Shown here piece by piece: positions 2,573-39,108 of a stretch of 64,000 nt of DNA. The DNA comes from Escherichia phage ECML-359. Where the stretch lies: the sequence record OL631482.1. The stretch is one strand, 5' to 3'. Both the position numbers and the translations under genes were made by a program. The notes under the pieces were generated by a model, which saw only the letters and a program-made list of their open reading frames with translations, was not told where the DNA came from and made no database searches. Each line of letters starts with the position of its first letter. Position 1 is the stretch's first letter.

Positions 2573-3004
2573 TTAAATTTCAAATTCTTTGCGGAAGTTG
2601 GAAGCATAAGACTGAACTGATGCTTTGTTGAATCCAAACTCACGCACAATCATATCAATAACAGCTCTGCGAGCAGCACCATTAGACATATTAACAGTTT
2701 TGAACATATCATAGCATAAATCTTTGTTGCTCATACCGGAGCGTTTAGGTGCCTTACGTTCAGCTTTAGGAGTAGGTTTAACTTCTGGTTTAACCTGTCC
2801 ATCATTCAGACCTTTAAAAATTTTACCTGCCAGAGTTGCCAGTTTAGCAGCTTCGCCACGAGTGATACCAAATACTGCCGGGTTAAATGAAATACCTTCA
2901 GCTGCCAGACGTTTGAAGAACATACGTGCTGCGGATTGTGCTTCAGCTTCAGAAGAGTTGTTTAATGCCAGCTTAACGTACTTAACCAGTTTTGAAGTTT
3001 TCAT
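2573..3004 (-). CDS. hypothetical early protein with shared C-terminal module
   Basis: 143-aa ORF; C-terminal NGAARRAVIDMIVREFGFNKASVQSYASNFRKEF shared with 3087..3512; own early promoter 3005-3086. Confidence 0.65.
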   Translation of the reverse strand: MKTSKLVKYVKLALNNSSEAEAQSAARMFFKRLAAEGISFNPAVFGITRGEAAKLATLAGKIFKGLNDGQVKPEVKPTPKAERKAPKRSGMSNKDLCYDMFKTVNMSNGAARRAVIDMIVREFGFNKASVQSYASNFRKEFEI

Positions 3005-3086: not shown

Positions 3087-3512
3087 TTATTTTTGAGCTT
3101 TGCGGAAGTTGGAAGCATATGACTGAACAACAGTCTTTTTGATATCATGGGTGTTAACCAGAACATCAATCAGGGCGCGGCGAGCTGCACCATCTGCCAT
3201 ATCAATTTCTGCAAATGCCTGGAAGCAAATGTCACGAGCATTACCAGATTTGGACTGGATTTTTTCTTCTTTAACTTCTTCAATTGGGAATTCAATCATT
3301 TCAGCTTGGATTAATTCAATGATAGATTCTTTTGACTGTTTGGTGTTTACCTTCAGTTCAGAATTAAGGGACTTAGCGATGGCAACAATCTGGGTTGAAG
3401 TCAGATGAATAAGTGCATCTTCACGAATGCAGATTTCACATACTTCGTCGGCAACCATTTTGTTAGTGATGCGGGTAACAGAGAATGCAGAAGTCAGGGT
3501 CAGGAAGTTCAT
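3087..3512 (-). CDS. hypothetical early protein with shared C-terminal module
   Basis: ORF track 3087..3593 trimmed to ATG (MNFLTLTS...) with GGAGA RBS; C-terminal DGAARRALIDVLV...VVQSYASNFRKAQK. Confidence 0.6.
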   Translation of the reverse strand: MNFLTLTSAFSVTRITNKMVADEVCEICIREDALIHLTSTQIVAIAKSLNSELKVNTKQSKESIIELIQAEMIEFPIEEVKEEKIQSKSGNARDICFQAFAEIDMADGAARRALIDVLVNTHDIKKTVVQSYASNFRKAQK

Positions 3513-3600
3513 TTTATTTCTCCAAAGTTTTGTTTGATTCAGTGTGTAACTCAGTATGGAATCATTATGCATCCAGTCAATTCGGATGTACACTACTTTT
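3513..3600 (-). promoter_or_regulatory. early promoter (-35 GTGTAC, 17-nt spacer, -10 CATAAT) with conserved leader
   Basis: same leader ccatactgagtta... as neighbouring cassettes. Confidence 0.55.
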
Positions 3601-3640: not shown

Positions 3641-4195
3641 TTAGTTCTTATAAAAGCGGAACGGATTTATATGAAAGGCGAGCATAGCCTTAGGGATTGG
3701 TCGGGACAGAAGACTCTTGAGCTTCCAGCCACAATAAACGCGCAGATAAAAGGTGATTCCACCGACCTTGAGATAAGGAACAGAAGCAAAAACACCCCAG
3801 GCATTATCCGTCCACATCCAGAGCCATCCGTGATGAGCTTTATCCGGGGAGCCGGATTCAACATCAGGATTACCTTTATAATGGAATTCTGAATTGCAAT
3901 CACGACCGAGCTTGTGGTAAGCAAAATTGTATGCTTTGTTTCGCCAGAGCCAGGCTACTCGTTGGAAGTAAACACCTAATGGCCATTTTCGGATTTTTGA
4001 CCAACGCTCGACATGACCCCGGTCACCATCAATCGGATTATCATAAGTCATCATCCAATCAAACCCGAACGGAAGTTTACCAGTCTTTTTATTATGGAAT
4101 GGAACTACAAATGGAGCCAGGATAACGGCCAGAATCATGGAGATAAAATCCAGTGGAACTAACAGAATCCAACTCAAATATTTTAACAGTTTCAT
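3641..4195 (-). CDS. membrane-anchored Trp-rich protein, unknown function
   Basis: ORF track 3641..4273 trimmed to ATG (MKLLKYLSWILL...); N-terminal TM helix; hairpin terminators on both sides. Confidence 0.6.
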   Translation of the reverse strand: MKLLKYLSWILLVPLDFISMILAVILAPFVVPFHNKKTGKLPFGFDWMMTYDNPIDGDRGHVERWSKIRKWPLGVYFQRVAWLWRNKAYNFAYHKLGRDCNSEFHYKGNPDVESGSPDKAHHGWLWMWTDNAWGVFASVPYLKVGGITFYLRVYCGWKLKSLLSRPIPKAMLAFHINPFRFYKN

Positions 4196-4223
4196 ACGTT
4201 TCTCTTTAGTTGATTTATAAAAA

Positions 4224-4246
4224 AGCCCCAACCTTTCGGAAGGGGC
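4224..4246 (-). terminator. hairpin terminator after 4285..4668
   Basis: agccccaacctttcggaaggggct. Confidence 0.45.
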
Positions 4247-4284
4247 TATACCTTGTCGGGGTTCCACCTGCAAGGCAAGTGTTC

Positions 4285-4668
4285 TTATCCGCGAGCGAAT
4301 GCCATTGCGGCGCGTTCGTTGGCACGGTCGGTGATGTTCAAGAATTTATCACGAGCGATTTCGATTGGAGCGCCAACCCAGTCAGCAGCACCATTACCTG
4401 GAGACTGTTTAGGGCGAACCATATAAGTTGAAACTTTAGAACCGGCCAGTTTGGCACCTGGTGCCGCGGCATTTTTAACGTCTTTAGCTTTGATGCCAAA
4501 CCCAGTTACGATACCCCAAGAAACACCATTAACTGGTTTCTTGAACATAACACGGTCACCAATTGAAACACCGGCTTTTTCTGGAGCCACTAAAGAAAAT
4601 TTACCAGCTTCAGTCAGTACGGATTCGGTGATGGTATTGCGATTTAAAAATTCTGCATATGTAAGCAT
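4285..4668 (-). CDS. internal-protein-like protein with capsid-targeting-like N-terminus
   Basis: N-terminus MLTYAEFLNRN resembles T4 internal-protein leader MKTYQEFIAEA; TATAAATA late promoter on minus strand just upstream (about 4702-4709). Confidence 0.55.
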   Translation of the reverse strand: MLTYAEFLNRNTITESVLTEAGKFSLVAPEKAGVSIGDRVMFKKPVNGVSWGIVTGFGIKAKDVKNAAAPGAKLAGSKVSTYMVRPKQSPGNGAADWVGAPIEIARDKFLNITDRANERAAMAFARG

Positions 4669-4701
4669 TTTGTTTTTCCATTATTAGGGTTGTTGTTAAT
4701 A

Positions 4702-4709
4702 TTTATATT
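4702..4709 (-). promoter_or_regulatory. late promoter TATAAATA
   Basis: reverse complement of tatttata about 40 nt upstream of ATG of 4285..4668. Confidence 0.5.
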
Positions 4710-4715
4710 CCATAG

Positions 4716-4900
4716 TACCGGATGCACCATCCGCTCGGATTTCTCATACTACCGGACGCACCGTCCGCTCTGGAAAAACTCCGTTAAAAGGGTGCGCCGT
4801 TTCAGCTGTGGTAGTAAAGAACCAGAACACAGTAAAACTGTGGGAGGAACTATACTTCAGGGAACGTCAGTCCGACGACTTACCGGTAGCGACCCGGTTT
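4716..4900 (-). ncRNA. candidate small structured RNA downstream of the tRNA genes (position analogous to T4 stable RNAs C/D)
   Basis: two near-identical short hairpins (ccggatgcaccatccg / ccggacgcaccgtccg) as a direct repeat; no convincing ORF; same strand and just downstream of tRNAs. Confidence 0.25.
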
Positions 4901-5156
4901 CTCATTCAATTGTAATAGCTAATTTGACTTTAACAACCTTATAATTGGAATCAAGGTCATTGAATTCCATAAAATTTGTTGCTAATCTGCGAGTCGGGAA
5001 ACTTAGATATTTATTATGCTCAGGTGGAGCAGTTAATGCAAACCATGGGACTTGTTTATCATTTTCATCAAACTCATCAAAGCTATAAACCAGCTCGTTG
5101 TTGGTTATATCCATAACTGCATATGATTCACTAATAACCATAATATCCTCGGTAAT

Positions 5157-5233
5157 TGGTCGGGGTGGTGGGATTCTAACCCACAACCTACGGTTTAGAA
5201 GACCGTTGCTCTATACAATTGAGCTACACCCCG
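5157..5233 (-). tRNA. tRNA-Arg (anticodon TCT)
   Basis: Hand-folded cloverleaf: acceptor CGGGGTG/CACCCCG, anticodon loop CTTCTAA, T-arm GTGGG-TTAGAAT-CCCAC, encoded CCA. Confidence 0.85.
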
Positions 5234-5309
5234 GGTGGCCCCATCCGGACTTGAACCGGAAACCTGCCAGTTATGAGCCGGATGCTCTAACCAATTGAGC
5301 TACAGGGCC
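5234..5309 (-). tRNA. tRNA with CAT anticodon (Met by anticodon; the T4 counterpart with CAU is tRNA-Ile)
   Basis: acceptor GGCCCTG/TGGGGCC, D-arm GCTCAATTGGTTAGAGC, anticodon loop CTCATAA, T-arm CCGG-TTCAAGT-CCGG; directly abuts tRNA-Arg. Confidence 0.8.
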
Positions 5310-6808: not shown

Positions 6809-7063
6809 TTATTTTTTAGGGATACGATAGTAACGCATCTCAACATCTTTCTGCTTGTGCCACTTTTTGATAAGGTCTTCAGAACCTTTAATGGTAACGA
6901 TGTCATAGCGACCATCATGCGATACTTCAGCACTTAACTGCATGAAGTTGTCTAGTGAACGGCGCAATTCCTCATTAGAAAAACTACCACGCGGGGAACC
7001 AACATAAGCAAACTCAACTTTTGCATCTGCGGCTTCGTTAATAAATTCTTGATAAGTTTTCAT
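6809..7063 (-). CDS. internal protein (capsid-targeting leader MKTYQEFINEA)
   Basis: N-terminus matches T4 IP capsid-targeting sequence; 84 aa; own promoter cassette. Confidence 0.75.
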   Translation of the reverse strand: MKTYQEFINEAADAKVEFAYVGSPRGSFSNEELRRSLDNFMQLSAEVSHDGRYDIVTIKGSEDLIKKWHKQKDVEMRYYRIPKK

Positions 7064-7119
7064 GTTGTCTCCAGTAGTTGATGAGATAATTATACTGCAG
7101 TTATCCCATCGCGTATACT
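7064..7119 (-). promoter_or_regulatory. early promoter in stem-loop (internal-protein cassette)
   Basis: gatgagataattatactgcagttatcccatc; -10 TATAAT. Confidence 0.5.
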
Positions 7120-7362
7120 TTATTTTAAGTCTTCCAGACGTTTTTTCATCTTGGTGCCGTTCTTAGCAATCTCGCCTGCATCAGAACAAAGAGCAAGGAG
7201 AGCTTTAACTTTACCCTGGTCGCCTTTAAAAGATGATGCATCTACTGAATCAGCAAGTTCTTTGATACGTGCAAACAGGCGCTCTGCTTCAGCAAGGGCT
7301 TGACCAAGTTTAACTTCCATACCATGGGAAGATTCTGTTATAAATGTTTGATAAGTTTTCAT
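7120..7362 (-). CDS. internal protein (leader MKTYQTFITES)
   Basis: capsid-targeting-like N-terminus; 80 aa; own promoter cassette 7363-7407. Confidence 0.7.
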   Translation of the reverse strand: MKTYQTFITESSHGMEVKLGQALAEAERLFARIKELADSVDASSFKGDQGKVKALLALCSDAGEIAKNGTKMKKRLEDLK

Positions 7363-7407
7363 GTTGTCTCCAAGCCATAAAAAGGGGATAATTATCCCCT
7401 TTTGTTA
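7363..7407 (-). promoter_or_regulatory. perfect 24-nt palindrome aaaaggggataattatcccctttt (terminator/promoter cassette)
   Basis: perfect inverted repeat between two internal-protein genes. Confidence 0.5.
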
Positions 7408-7707
7408 TTACATCTTACTACCACGAATTACGCCATAAGCAGCGAAGTCGTCAGTGATATTTTTAGGAGTGTTTTTACCCGTTTCAATGAAAGCGATGCT
7501 TGATTTCTGACTAAAAGAGGTAATTTTGTTATAGTTAGAGTCAAGGAAGGTATAACCATTTTTACGCAGCTGGTCAAAGTCTTCAGCGTCGCCTTTACCT
7601 TTGAAGTCAACCCATTTGTAGGTGTTTTTCTTCTGAAGGCCCAGAGGCCAGGTTTTTGCTTCTGCCAGGTAATTGTTTTCTACCAAAAATTCATGAAAAG
7701 TTTGCAT
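7408..7707 (-). CDS. internal protein (leader MQTFHEFLVEN)
   Basis: capsid-targeting-like N-terminus; 99 aa. Confidence 0.65.
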   Translation of the reverse strand: MQTFHEFLVENNYLAEAKTWPLGLQKKNTYKWVDFKGKGDAEDFDQLRKNGYTFLDSNYNKITSFSQKSSIAFIETGKNTPKNITDDFAAYGVIRGSKM

Positions 7708-7715
7708 TTGAAATC

Positions 7716-7988
7716 CTATTTAAGATAAATTGCGTATTTTTTATAACCAGCCGTCTCATGGCGAAGACCCTTGTCATTGGCAAAACGCTCAATGTTATTA
7801 ATTTGGTTCTGGTCAAGTTCTGAAATGCCAAACGCGAAAAAGTTGCGTTTGTTGCCAATTGTTATATGGTCAGTTAAGTCAATGCTATACAGGTGATTGA
7901 TATTGTCAATCATAGCTTTGACTGCTTTACTAATTTTTACTTCTTCATTTAGTTGTGACTCGTTGAAAAATTCATTGAAAGTTTTCAT
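7716..7988 (-). CDS. internal protein (leader MKTFNEFFNES)
   Basis: capsid-targeting-like N-terminus; 90 aa. Confidence 0.65.
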   Translation of the reverse strand: MKTFNEFFNESQLNEEVKISKAVKAMIDNINHLYSIDLTDHITIGNKRNFFAFGISELDQNQINNIERFANDKGLRHETAGYKKYAIYLK

Positions 7989-7996
7989 AAGAAACC

Positions 7997-8329
7997 TTAT
8001 TTATAAAGTTTTGCTAGTTCTTTACGTCCGCGAGCAGACATAATAAATTGTTCATCGCCAATTTTAAAATAAGCCATACCGCCGTCAACAGCGATACCAA
8101 TTTCTTTAGTACCTTCTTTGCCTTTCCACTTGCCACCAGATTTCAGGACAGCTTCAACTGCAGCTTTGGAATATTTGGACGTTTGAAAACGTTCATTACC
8201 AATCTGAAAGAAAACACCATCTGCATTTTTGGTTAAACCAAATTTCAGGGAGCCTTCACTATCATCAATTGATTTGGTCTCATTGATGGCGGATTCGGCT
8301 AAAAACTCGTTGTAAGTTTTGATGTTCAT
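7997..8329 (-). CDS. internal protein (leader MNIKTYNEFLAES)
   Basis: capsid-targeting-like N-terminus; 110 aa; early promoter stem-loop 8330-8393 upstream. Confidence 0.65.
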   Translation of the reverse strand: MNIKTYNEFLAESAINETKSIDDSEGSLKFGLTKNADGVFFQIGNERFQTSKYSKAAVEAVLKSGGKWKGKEGTKEIGIAVDGGMAYFKIGDEQFIMSARGRKELAKLYK

Positions 8330-8393: not shown

Positions 8394-9084
<691 letters not shown>

Positions 9085-37191: not shown

Positions 37192-37619
37192 TGTTTATTA
37201 TCCCTGATGATTACGAATTAACTCTTGAAAACATTGAAAGTGTTTCCGAAGAAGCTCAGGGACAATTTGATTCATTATCTGAAGCTTTAGAAAAAGACGA
37301 TATAAATATTATTGTAGAAAACATGTTTGCAGCTGGTGAATATGAAAAAGCAACGGTTATCGGCGCGCTGAATGAAGGTGTTCAGCTTAACGAATTTATC
37401 GTTAAACATGTATCGTCTCGCGGTGAGTTAACCCGCACAAAAGACCTAGCTACTCGTAAGCGTAATGCTTTCCAAACAACTGGTCTTTCTAAAGCTAAAC
37501 GTCGTCAAATTGCCCGTCTGGCTACTAAAACAAAAAGAGCAAACCCATCTACGCAAATCAGAGCAGAGCGCAAGCGCAAAAAAGCTCGAGCTAAGCGTAA
37601 AGCATTCGGACTTGATTAA
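37191..37619 (+). CDS. 68: prohead core protein gp68
   Basis: 142 aa, basic C-terminus; synteny. Confidence 0.85.
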
Positions 37620-38257
37620 TGGAACAGAAACCAGAGTTACTAATCGAACACTGGGGTCAACCGGGCGAAATTAAAGATGGTGTACCGATGTTGGAATCTC
37701 ATGATGGTTCCAGCACCGGTTTAAAGCCAGGACTTTATATTGAAGGTATTTTCCTACAAGCTGAAGTTGTTAACCGTAATAAACGACTTTATCCTAAACA
37801 TATTTTGGAAAAAGCCGTTGCTGATTATATGACAGAACAGGTTGCTACTAAACAAGCTTTAGGAGAATTAAATCATCCGCCCCGTGCTAACGTCGACCCT
37901 ATGCAAGCCGCTATTATTATTGAAGATATGTGGTGGAAAGGTAATGATGTATATGGCCGCGCGCGTATTATCGAAGGCGACCATGGCCCAGGTGATAAAC
38001 TTGCTGCAAATATAAGAGCAGGTTGGATTCCAGGTGTATCTAGTCGTGGACTTGGTTCCTTGACTAAATCAGCAAAAGGTTATAGCATCGTTAATGAAGG
38101 TTTTAAATTGACGGTTGGAGTAGATGCAGTATGGGGGCCAAGTGCTCCGGACGCTTGGGTCAAACCAAAGCAGATTACAGAATCACAAACGGCAGTTGCC
38201 GATACCAGTGCCGATGACGCCTTTATGGCTCTCGCAGAGGCTTTAAAGACGTTATAA
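37619..38257 (+). CDS. 21: prohead core scaffold protein and protease gp21
   Basis: 212 aa; synteny. Confidence 0.9.
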   Translation: MEQKPELLIEHWGQPGEIKDGVPMLESHDGSSTGLKPGLYIEGIFLQAEVVNRNKRLYPKHILEKAVADYMTEQVATKQALGELNHPPRANVDPMQAAIIIEDMWWKGNDVYGRARIIEGDHGPGDKLAANIRAGWIPGVSSRGLGSLTKSAKGYSIVNEGFKLTVGVDAVWGPSAPDAWVKPKQITESQTAVADTSADDAFMALAEALKTL

Positions 38258-38260
38258 ATA
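38253..38260 (+). promoter_or_regulatory. late promoter TATAAATA (gene 22)
   Basis: exact TATAAATA overlapping gene 21 stop. Confidence 0.55.
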
Positions 38261-38289
38261 AATGTATATCTTAACAACAGGACTACAAA

Positions 38290-39108
38290 ATGCTTAAAGA
38301 ACAACTCATTTCTGAAGCTCAGAATATCGATGCTTCCGTTGCTCTCGATAGTATTTTCGAATCAGTTAATTTGTCCCCGGAAGCGAAAGCTACCTTCGGC
38401 ACTGTATTCGAAGCTACCGTCAAGCAACACGCCATCAAACTGGCAGAATCTCACATTCACGCCATCGCTGAAAAAGCTGAAGAAGAAGTCGAAAAGAATA
38501 AAGAAGAAGCCGACGAAAAAGCAGAGAAAAAACTGAAAGAATCTGCCGCTAAATTCCTGGACCACGTTGCTAAAGAATGGCTCGCTGAAAATAAACTGGC
38601 TGTCGACCGTGGCATTAAAGCTGACCTGTTCGAATCCATGTTCACCGGCATGAAAGAACTGTTCGTTGAGCACAACGTTGTTGTTCCAGAAGAATCTGTC
38701 GATGTTGTTGCAGAAATGCAGGAAGAACTGGCTGAACAGAAAGAAGAAACCGCTAATCTGTTCGAAGAAGTTGCTAAGCGTGATGCTTATATCAATTATG
38801 TCCAACGTGAAGTTGCGTTGACTGAAGCGACTAAAGACCTGACTGAATCTCAAAAAGAAAAAGTTGGTTCTCTGGTAGAAGGCATGGAATACTCTGATGC
38901 ATTCGGTACCAAAATTGGCGCTATCGTTGAAATGGTTAAAGGTCAGGTAGAACCCACCAACAAACCAATCACCGAAGCCGCTATAAATAAAAATGTAGAC
39001 GATGCTGCGGCACTGAATTACATTTCAGAAGCAGTTGAAGAAAAAGGCGCCAAGCCTACCCTGTCCTTCGCGGACTTGTCTGCTCTCGCAGCATCACGAA
39101 TTTCTTAA
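38290..39108 (+). CDS. 22: prohead core scaffold protein gp22
   Basis: 272 aa, highly charged E/K-rich. Confidence 0.9.
   Translation: MLKEQLISEAQNIDASVALDSIFESVNLSPEAKATFGTVFEATVKQHAIKLAESHIHAIAEKAEEEVEKNKEEADEKAEKKLKESAAKFLDHVAKEWLAENKLAVDRGIKADLFESMFTGMKELFVEHNVVVPEESVDVVAEMQEELAEQKEETANLFEEVAKRDAYINYVQREVALTEATKDLTESQKEKVGSLVEGMEYSDAFGTKIGAIVEMVKGQVEPTNKPITEAAINKNVDDAAALNYISEAVEEKGAKPTLSFADLSALAASRIS

Follow-up and report, generated by a model that had tools for sequence, protein, structure and literature searches.

A candidate internal head protein precursor gene in place of the stable RNA C gene in a T4-type Escherichia phage

Gene content of the locus

The window, by which we mean the whole 64,000-nt stretch of Escherichia phage ECML-359 that was analysed (OL631482.1), contained an open reading frame (ORF) for a protein of 127 aa between a homologue of the T4 stable RNA D gene and a double-hairpin terminator. 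Its features, together with the related genes elsewhere in the window, are listed below.

4285..4668, minus strand: candidate internal head protein precursor gene, 127 aa (ORF list, codon pattern, native GC3)
4609..4668, minus strand: leader resembling a capsid-targeting sequence, codons 1-20 (MLTYAEF LNRNT ITE/S V LTE/A)
4677..4679, minus strand: weak Shine-Dalgarno sequence GGA, read from the sequence, with 8 nt spacing to the ATG
4700..4707, minus strand: T4-type late promoter octamer TATAAATA, an exact match, invariant in 9 phages
4716..4770, minus strand: two tandem 21-nt repeats GAGCGGRYGGTGCRYCCGGTA (4716-4736 and 4750-4770), just 5′ of the promoter
4219..4277, minus strand: double hairpin and U6 intrinsic terminator, common to the tRNA/stable-RNA operon
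4284..4790, minus strand: 507-nt segment in place of rnaC (two hairpin repeats, late promoter and gene)
4791..4906, minus strand: homologue of T4 stable RNA D (species 2 RNA), kept (blastn to T4 rnaD)
5157..5309, minus strand: tRNA-Arg(TCT) and tRNA-Met/Ile2(CAT) (ARAGORN, Rfam)
6809..8329, minus strand: five leader-bearing internal-protein genes (N-termini; PHROG matches for four)
37619..39108, plus strand: gp21 prohead protease and gp22 scaffold (Pfam Peptidase_S77, 4.9e-102; T4_CASP, 3.8e-91)

The gene order followed that of T4, with an e.6-like gene, the tRNA genes, the internal-protein (IP) genes, 57B, 57A, gene 1 and gene 3. The preliminary description had called the product of ORF 4285..4668 a sixth leader-bearing protein across the tRNA genes, and the two tRNA genes (tRNA-Arg, 5157..5233; tRNA-Met/Ile2-CAT, 5234..5309) do lie between it and the five ORFs at 6809..8329. 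The parallel it drew with T4, where IP genes flank the tRNA cluster, holds as well: ipI lies on one side, and ipII and ipIII on the other, about 4.5 kb away beyond e and e.1-e.8. ARAGORN classified the tRNA with anticodon CAT (5234-5309, minus strand) as tRNA-Met, while the EAWsc9 annotation gives tRNA-Ile2 of the lysidine type; it is probably an isoleucine tRNA, because the T4 cluster has a tRNA-Ile.

The five ORFs at 6809..8329 start with MKTYQEFINE, MKTYQTFITE, MQTFHEFLVE, MKTFNEFFNE and MNIKTYNEFLAE. They matched PHROGs 8111, 3499, 2667, 7673 and 3966, four of the five being “internal head/virion protein” families. In the ORF starting with MNIKTYNEFLAE (7997-8329, minus strand) the targeting motif is shifted by two residues, and its family, PHROG 3966, is of unknown function. 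The candidate shares strand, leader class and similar size with these genes. Unlike them it had no PHROG match, and it is separated from them by the two tRNA genes, three ORFs and rnaD.

The T4 head module was also found in the window, comprising gp20, gp67, gp21, gp22, gp23 and gp24. Pfam matches to Peptidase_S77, T4_CASP, Portal_T4, GP67 and Gp23 (twice) indicate that a prohead core is encoded there.

Replacement of rnaC

The replacement of rnaC was recognised from BLAST breakpoints against phages RZ and SP18 and from sequence comparison with T4 rnaD and rnaC. RZ and SP18 lack the candidate gene, and between the rnaD 3′ end and the terminator they are 94% identical to T4 rnaC. The rnaD homologue was retained in the window, matching T4 rnaD by blastn at 52 of 55 positions at the 5′ end and 24 of 27 at the 3′ end. 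RNA C itself was missing from 4284-4906 (minus strand), and in the comparison with loci L009, L010 and L014 the hairpins, promoter and gene of the window took exactly the place that rnaC has in RZ, SP18 and T4. As judged from these alignments, an RNA gene and a protein gene replace one another at the rnaC position, where the tRNA operon ends. Neither RNA C nor RNA D of T4 has an assigned role in the literature (PMC3014915, PMC12685909).

Coding evidence and distribution

The protein has the N-terminus MLTYAEFLNRN and opens with MLTYAEFLNRNTITESVLTEAGKF. The triplets in frame before its ATG are TAA TAA TGG AAA AAC AAA, and the two TAA codons, five and six codons upstream, fix the N-terminus. 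Across nine aligned Gaprivervirus genomes (Straboviridae, Tevenvirinae) the gene had 43 variable nucleotides, 42 of them at codon position 3. The sole amino-acid change was the conservative V17I, although pairwise divergence reached about 0.27 per synonymous site. One of 42 variable codons thus changed an amino acid, against 3/35, 4/15 and 3/13 in three neighbouring genes, making the candidate the most constrained of the four genes compared in the same genomes. On this substitution pattern, ORF 4285..4668 is a real gene under strong purifying selection.

One could argue that the ORF is spurious, a chance-open piece of non-coding spacer in the tRNA/stable-RNA operon, given that the same region is non-coding (rnaC) in T4 and that the protein lacks any family match. 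The ratio of 42:1 in favour of third positions effectively refutes this. Homologues detected at the protein level (E = 1e-13 to 1e-14, see below) and a native GC3 also speak against it, and we assign it a negligible probability. GC3 was 0.35, a value inside the range seen for genes native to the phage, and for this reason a recent foreign acquisition was also rejected. The raised overall GC content of the gene follows from its Gly/Ala-rich composition.

The candidate protein was found in 15 phage records, 14 of which encode the identical 127 residues. Identity of the protein is not due to identity of the DNA, since 43 sites vary among the nine genomes. The region 4100-5000 was 96-99% identical to Gaprivervirus Escherichia phages (among them pEC-M719-6WT.2, EAWsc9 and UPEC07). 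The gene is nevertheless rare: it was present in only 15 of the 590 phage records matching its flanks, and was missing from most Gaprivervirus and other Tevenvirinae genomes. Neither virion proteomics nor transcript maps of the 15 carrier phages came to light in a literature search.

Leader and predicted cleavage sites

The N-terminus fits the T4 capsid-targeting motif M-x-T-[YF]-x-E-F, which is common to IPI, IPII and IPIII. The corresponding pattern, M.T[YF].EF, had four occurrences in the 64 kb, all six frames counted, and every one was at the start of an ORF, compared with a mean of 0.01 in 100 shuffled sequences. These four ORFs were three known internal-protein genes and the candidate. 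The proposal that MLTYAEFLNRN resembles a capsid-targeting leader was therefore borne out, both by these counts and by alignment with the T4 internal proteins. In BLASTP comparisons with the internal proteins of T4 and of the window, the candidate aligned over its leader only: the leader could be aligned with those of IPI, IPII and IPIII, and the bodies could not.

The best leader alignment was with T4 IPI and spanned 23 columns (MLTYAEFLNR----NTITESVLT against MKTFKEFTSTTTPVSTITEATLT). The pattern TITE-x-x-LT is common to the two leaders. In the T4 record the IPI precursor starts with MKTFKEFTSTTTPVSTITE/ATLT..., and IPII and IPIII both start with MKTYQEFIAE/A.... The propeptides of IPs have 10-19 residues; leader residues 4 and 7 are the main determinants of targeting, and processing is governed by residues 8 and 10, an Asp at position 10 blocking processing and not targeting (PMC9026906). 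Both Tyr4 and Phe7 are kept in the candidate, whereas position 10 is Arg and not Glu. Because Glu10, the processing residue of IPII and IPIII, has been replaced, processing must use a site further downstream, and the leader belongs to the longer, IPI type.

The prohead protease gp21 cuts after L/I-X-E (PMC9026906). Only two such motifs were present in the candidate, ITE (13-15) and LTE (18-20), and with the predicted cuts the leader reads MLTYAEFLNRNTITE/SVLTE/A. A leader of 20 residues, with the cut after Glu20, exceeds the quoted range of 10-19 by one residue. Mature T4 IPI has 76 residues (PMC3012670) and its precursor 95 aa, which places the cleavage after ITE19. Residues 1-21 of the candidate were disordered in an AlphaFold model, consistent with a removable propeptide.

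Transcription signals and upstream repeats

An exact late promoter octamer had been described about 40 nt upstream on the same strand, and this was confirmed: TATAAATA occupies 4707..4700 (minus strand), with its start 39 nt and its end 32 nt upstream of the candidate's ATG. The octamer was enriched 4.5-fold in the window, with 21 instances against 4.6 ± 2.1 in shuffled sequences. Among the six leader-bearing genes only two, the candidate and the IP gene 7716..7988, had an exact TATAAATA within 90 nt upstream. The copy belonging to the latter lies at 7998..8005, within the last codons of ORF 7997-8329, and would drive 7716..7988.

The promoter was found throughout the family. In all four members, that is, the candidate and the three distant homologues described below, a NATAAATA box starts 36-42 nt 5′ of the ATG. 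The octamers in the four loci were, window first, TATAAATA, GATAAATA, AATAAATA and AATAAATA; T4 late promoters tolerate variation at the first position. In two of the loci, L011 (8.9 kb) and L012 (1.8 kb), the promoter copy was the sole NATAAATA on its strand. At the level of sequence, this signal and its conserved position fit a gene expressed at the time of head assembly. The GGA of the candidate is weaker than the GGAG and AGGA sites of the neighbouring IP genes.

Each of the two GAGCGGRYGGTGCRYCCGGTA copies upstream of the promoter forms a 6-bp hairpin with a GUG loop, and these were the only copies in the window (none expected). In the first copy three phages had a compensatory A>G / T>C change, and in the second one phage had a G-U change. 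A match of 17 out of 18 nt to the repeat, TTCCAGAGCGGGCGGTGC, was found 5′ of the distant homologue in L013. The upstream region as a whole folded no better than shuffled sequences (z = -0.7), and no Rfam family matched either the hairpin region or the terminator. We considered whether the hairpin and GGTAsTAT repeats could be promoter/stem-loop recombination elements of the PeSL type, but no acceptable -35 element was found at the right spacing, and we do not adopt this reading. A “YGGTG” motif common to the four loci, 5′ of the late promoter, was also set aside as too short to interpret; in L012 it lies within coding sequence.

The double-hairpin terminator had a folding energy of -27.6 kcal/mol (z = -2.7). 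In T4, RZ and SP18, rnaC is followed by this same sequence, which thus represents the ancestral end of the tRNA/stable-RNA operon. Besides being transcribed late, the candidate may be reached by read-through from that operon. A GC-rich hairpin and a T-run followed the gene in every family member.

Distant homologues

Full-length distant homologues numbered only three among about 15 billion proteins, with identities to the candidate of 38-47%. Two diverged proteins and one fragment (E = 1e-13 to 1e-14) came from an exhaustive HMMER search of 1.84 billion representatives, and a further profile search recovered one more full-length homologue. A word-indexed search of 5.8 billion clusters detected nothing beyond near-identical copies, scans of IMG/VR and of JGI metagenomes returned only identical copies of the candidate, and a tblastn search of 50,697 phage records with the distant homologues as queries returned only the same 15 phages. 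The N-termini of the three homologues were as follows.

P0003: MYTFKEFLVE SELDL ITE AKK
P0004: MKSFKEFM LSE K
P0005: MLTYNEFLEE KSGNN LTE A

All three possessed a leader, an [LI]-x-E site, a NATAAATA box and a terminator. The leader, the cleavage motifs and the promoter are thus present in the candidate and conserved in its distant relatives. The body of P0003 carries an extra insert of about 90 residues, and P0003 and P0004 have an additional internal LKE site. The fragment, P0002, was 88% identical to the candidate, and its most conserved part was the leader together with the rest of the first 24 residues.

Judged by their neighbouring genes, the contigs of all three homologues were T4-like. 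In L011 and L013 the family gene directly follows the tRNA cluster, as it does in the window. In L012 the gene 3′ of P0004 (1121-1564) is a homologue of the window ORF 2573..3004, which indicates that the neighbourhood is conserved across distant T4-like phages. In the window itself, ORFs 2573-3004 and 3087-3593 (minus strand) are adjacent paralogues with a common C-terminal domain ending ...VQSYASNFRK.

These homologues bear on the possibility that the candidate is a late cytoplasmic protein that is not packaged, its IP-like N-terminus being a scar of recombination among IP genes with no targeting role. Recombination at conserved flanking and leader sequences is known to reshuffle IP loci (PMC4122927), the candidate gene sits at an indel junction, and Glu10 is missing. 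A scar, however, would be expected to decay. The leader was instead kept in three homologues with bodies only 38-47% identical and with different leader-coding DNA; it was the best conserved part even in P0002, and protease motifs follow it in every member. Retention of the leader and of L/I-x-E across such wide divergence of the body argues for selection on the leader and not for a recent recombination scar, and we consider an unpackaged cytoplasmic protein with such a scar improbable.

Body and predicted structure

Behind Glu15 the body comprises 112 aa, including 13 Gly, 18 Ala and 11 Lys (37% Gly, Ala and Lys combined), with a pI of 10.1. Depending on the cleavage site, the predicted mature protein (107-112 aa) has a mass of 11.1-11.7 kDa and a pI of 10.1-10.3, and so is small and basic. 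The candidate had no family match in Pfam, PHROG or NCBIfam, in keeping with the earlier impression of a Gly/Ala/Lys-rich body with no obvious enzymatic motif. Searches of Pfam, PHROGs and NCBIfam with the homologues returned nothing usable. A match of P0003 to an NCBIfam muramidase model was dismissed, as it scored 19 bits against a cut-off of 701 and covered a low-complexity linker. A profile search of PDB sequences gave only matches with E of at least 0.5 (a designed double-psi barrel and beta-lactamases), which were likewise dismissed. When the body was compared by BLASTP with T4 IPI, IPII and IPIII and with the five internal proteins of the window, E-values were at least 0.45, and homology to these families was not detected.

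AlphaFold gave a pLDDT of 36 from the single sequence, and 70.6 with a pTM of 0.63 from an alignment of five sequences. The five-sequence model, of moderate confidence, consists of a small, putatively SH3-like beta-barrel followed by a C-terminal helix. A structure search of BFVD found only the identical protein of VR20, and Foldseek found nothing significant in the PDB, including no fold match to IPI*, the mature form of IPI. Compared with the SH3-like small beta-barrels (KOW, Tudor/chromo/PWWP and the N-terminal barrel of Hpy99I), the model showed no sequence similarity and no specific best match; with a pLDDT of 70.6 from five sequences, the fold class alone assigns no function. A basic barrel of this kind nonetheless suggests DNA or RNA binding, and the small basic body of the model fits a cargo that would bind nucleic acid or protein.

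Comparison with known internal proteins

Internal proteins are a cargo that reaches the host before the genes of a T4-like phage are expressed. To our knowledge, the internal protein whose function is known is IPI*, an inhibitor of the type IV restriction enzyme GmrSD. The candidate resembles T4 IPI in having M-x-T-[YF]-x-E-F without Glu10, followed by a spacer and then T-I-T-E / x-x-L-T. Both proteins are small, dispensable and patchily distributed, and both occur in a T4-type phage with gp21 and gp22. They differ in that their bodies are unrelated by BLAST, in leader length (15 or 20 residues in the candidate and 19 in T4 IPI) and in gene position, the candidate lying in the rnaC slot, past the tRNA genes, and T4 ipI beside 57B. 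The candidate also has an exact late promoter, whereas an early-type promoter lies upstream of T4 ipI.

With T4 IPII and IPIII, which have a 10-residue capsid-targeting sequence (CTS; MKTYQEFIAE), the candidate shares the core T-Y-x-E-F-[IL], including identical Tyr4 and Phe7, and a small, basic and Lys-rich mature protein. The genes for IPII and IPIII also lie beyond the tRNA cluster as seen from ipI. Unlike IPII and IPIII, the candidate has Arg in place of Glu10, and hence no 10-residue processing site, and its body is unrelated to theirs.

T-even phages have been known since the 1990s to carry diverse CTS-bearing proteins, and a new family is not surprising in kind. What is unusual in this case is the replacement of rnaC together with the extreme conservation. 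The literature describes internal proteins that diversify rapidly, and the near-absolute conservation of the candidate is unlike that. It suggests an invariant partner.

Proposed role of the gene product

We regard it as likely, from the features of the gene and its relatives, that the candidate represents a new family of T4-type internal head protein, expressed late, equipped with an IPI-type leader, trimmed by gp21 after Glu15 and/or Glu20, packed into the head and ejected. Late transcription, packaging, cleavage, ejection and a function after ejection are all steps that we infer for it. Late in infection, the gene would be transcribed from its own gp55-type TATAAATA promoter, with transcripts ending at the double-hairpin terminator of the operon; earlier transcripts may also arise by read-through from the tRNA/rnaD operon. 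The 127-aa precursor would then be drawn into the gp22 scaffolding core of the prohead by way of MLTYAEF, in which Tyr4 and Phe7 are kept. There gp21 is predicted to remove the leader after Glu15 (I-T-E) and/or Glu20 (L-T-E), comparable to I-T-E19 in T4 IPI. The resulting product of 107-112 aa, about 11 kDa and a pI of about 10, would stay in the head with the DNA and be ejected into the next host. Its most likely activity in that host would be the binding of nucleic acid or of a host factor, protecting or establishing the incoming genome.

Several observations count against a packaged internal protein. Position 10 is Arg, and the GGA is weak; the gene lies outside the IP locus between 57B and the tRNA genes, and its body is not homologous to that of any characterised internal protein. 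We also count the near-absolute conservation against it, and the model comes from only five sequences and is of moderate confidence.

Conservation of this degree (1/42 variable codons non-synonymous) fits contact with conserved phage structures better than an arms race, and raises the alternative that the protein is an accessory of the prohead core or of its assembly, targeted to the scaffold by its leader, which acts in head assembly or is expelled or degraded at maturation, and would not be ejected as an effector. Mutants of T4 IPIII are defective in head assembly (PMC9026906), and an assembly role has been proposed in part for that protein. The extra internal LKE in P0003 and P0004 also counts in favour of this alternative. 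The window protein, however, has no L/I-x-E past residue 20, and its body should therefore survive maturation as those of the internal proteins do. Moreover, a gene present in only 15 of 590 flank-matching records cannot be needed for assembly. We give a role confined to the head a low probability and prefer the packaged and ejected internal protein.

For such an ejected protein, the IPI* precedent suggests, by analogy, inhibition of a host defence. Taken together with that precedent, its rarity, near-invariance and unrelated fold make this IP family a concrete candidate for a new function after injection, in counter-defence or DNA binding. A bolder version makes the mature protein a new effector with an SH3-like fold, injected to counter defences or to protect the genome, and sees in the strict either/or with rnaC two alternative cargoes of one adaptive slot. 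We hold this to be unlikely. If true, it would for the first time open a way to the function of T4 RNA C, which has gone unexplained for decades. The family would also be an instance of the long, IPI-type leader in use outside the classical IP locus.

Adjacent genes

The 57B homologue (8394-8849, minus strand) is annotated in EAWsc9 as the anti-CBASS protein Acb1, by which annotation a known counter-defence gene borders the IP cluster. On the other side, 3′ of the terminator, lies a gene (3641-4198, minus strand) for a DUF7338 membrane protein (phrog_2143), named “holin” or “amidase-6 domain” in relatives. It is missing in P896, TH54 and SP18 and constitutes another indel adjoining the cassette. 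A 7/8 match to the late promoter, TATAAATC, was found at 4212-4219 (minus strand), 13 nt 5′ of the start of this gene (4198) and overlapping the terminator U-tract, and the DUF7338 gene may thus also have a late start.
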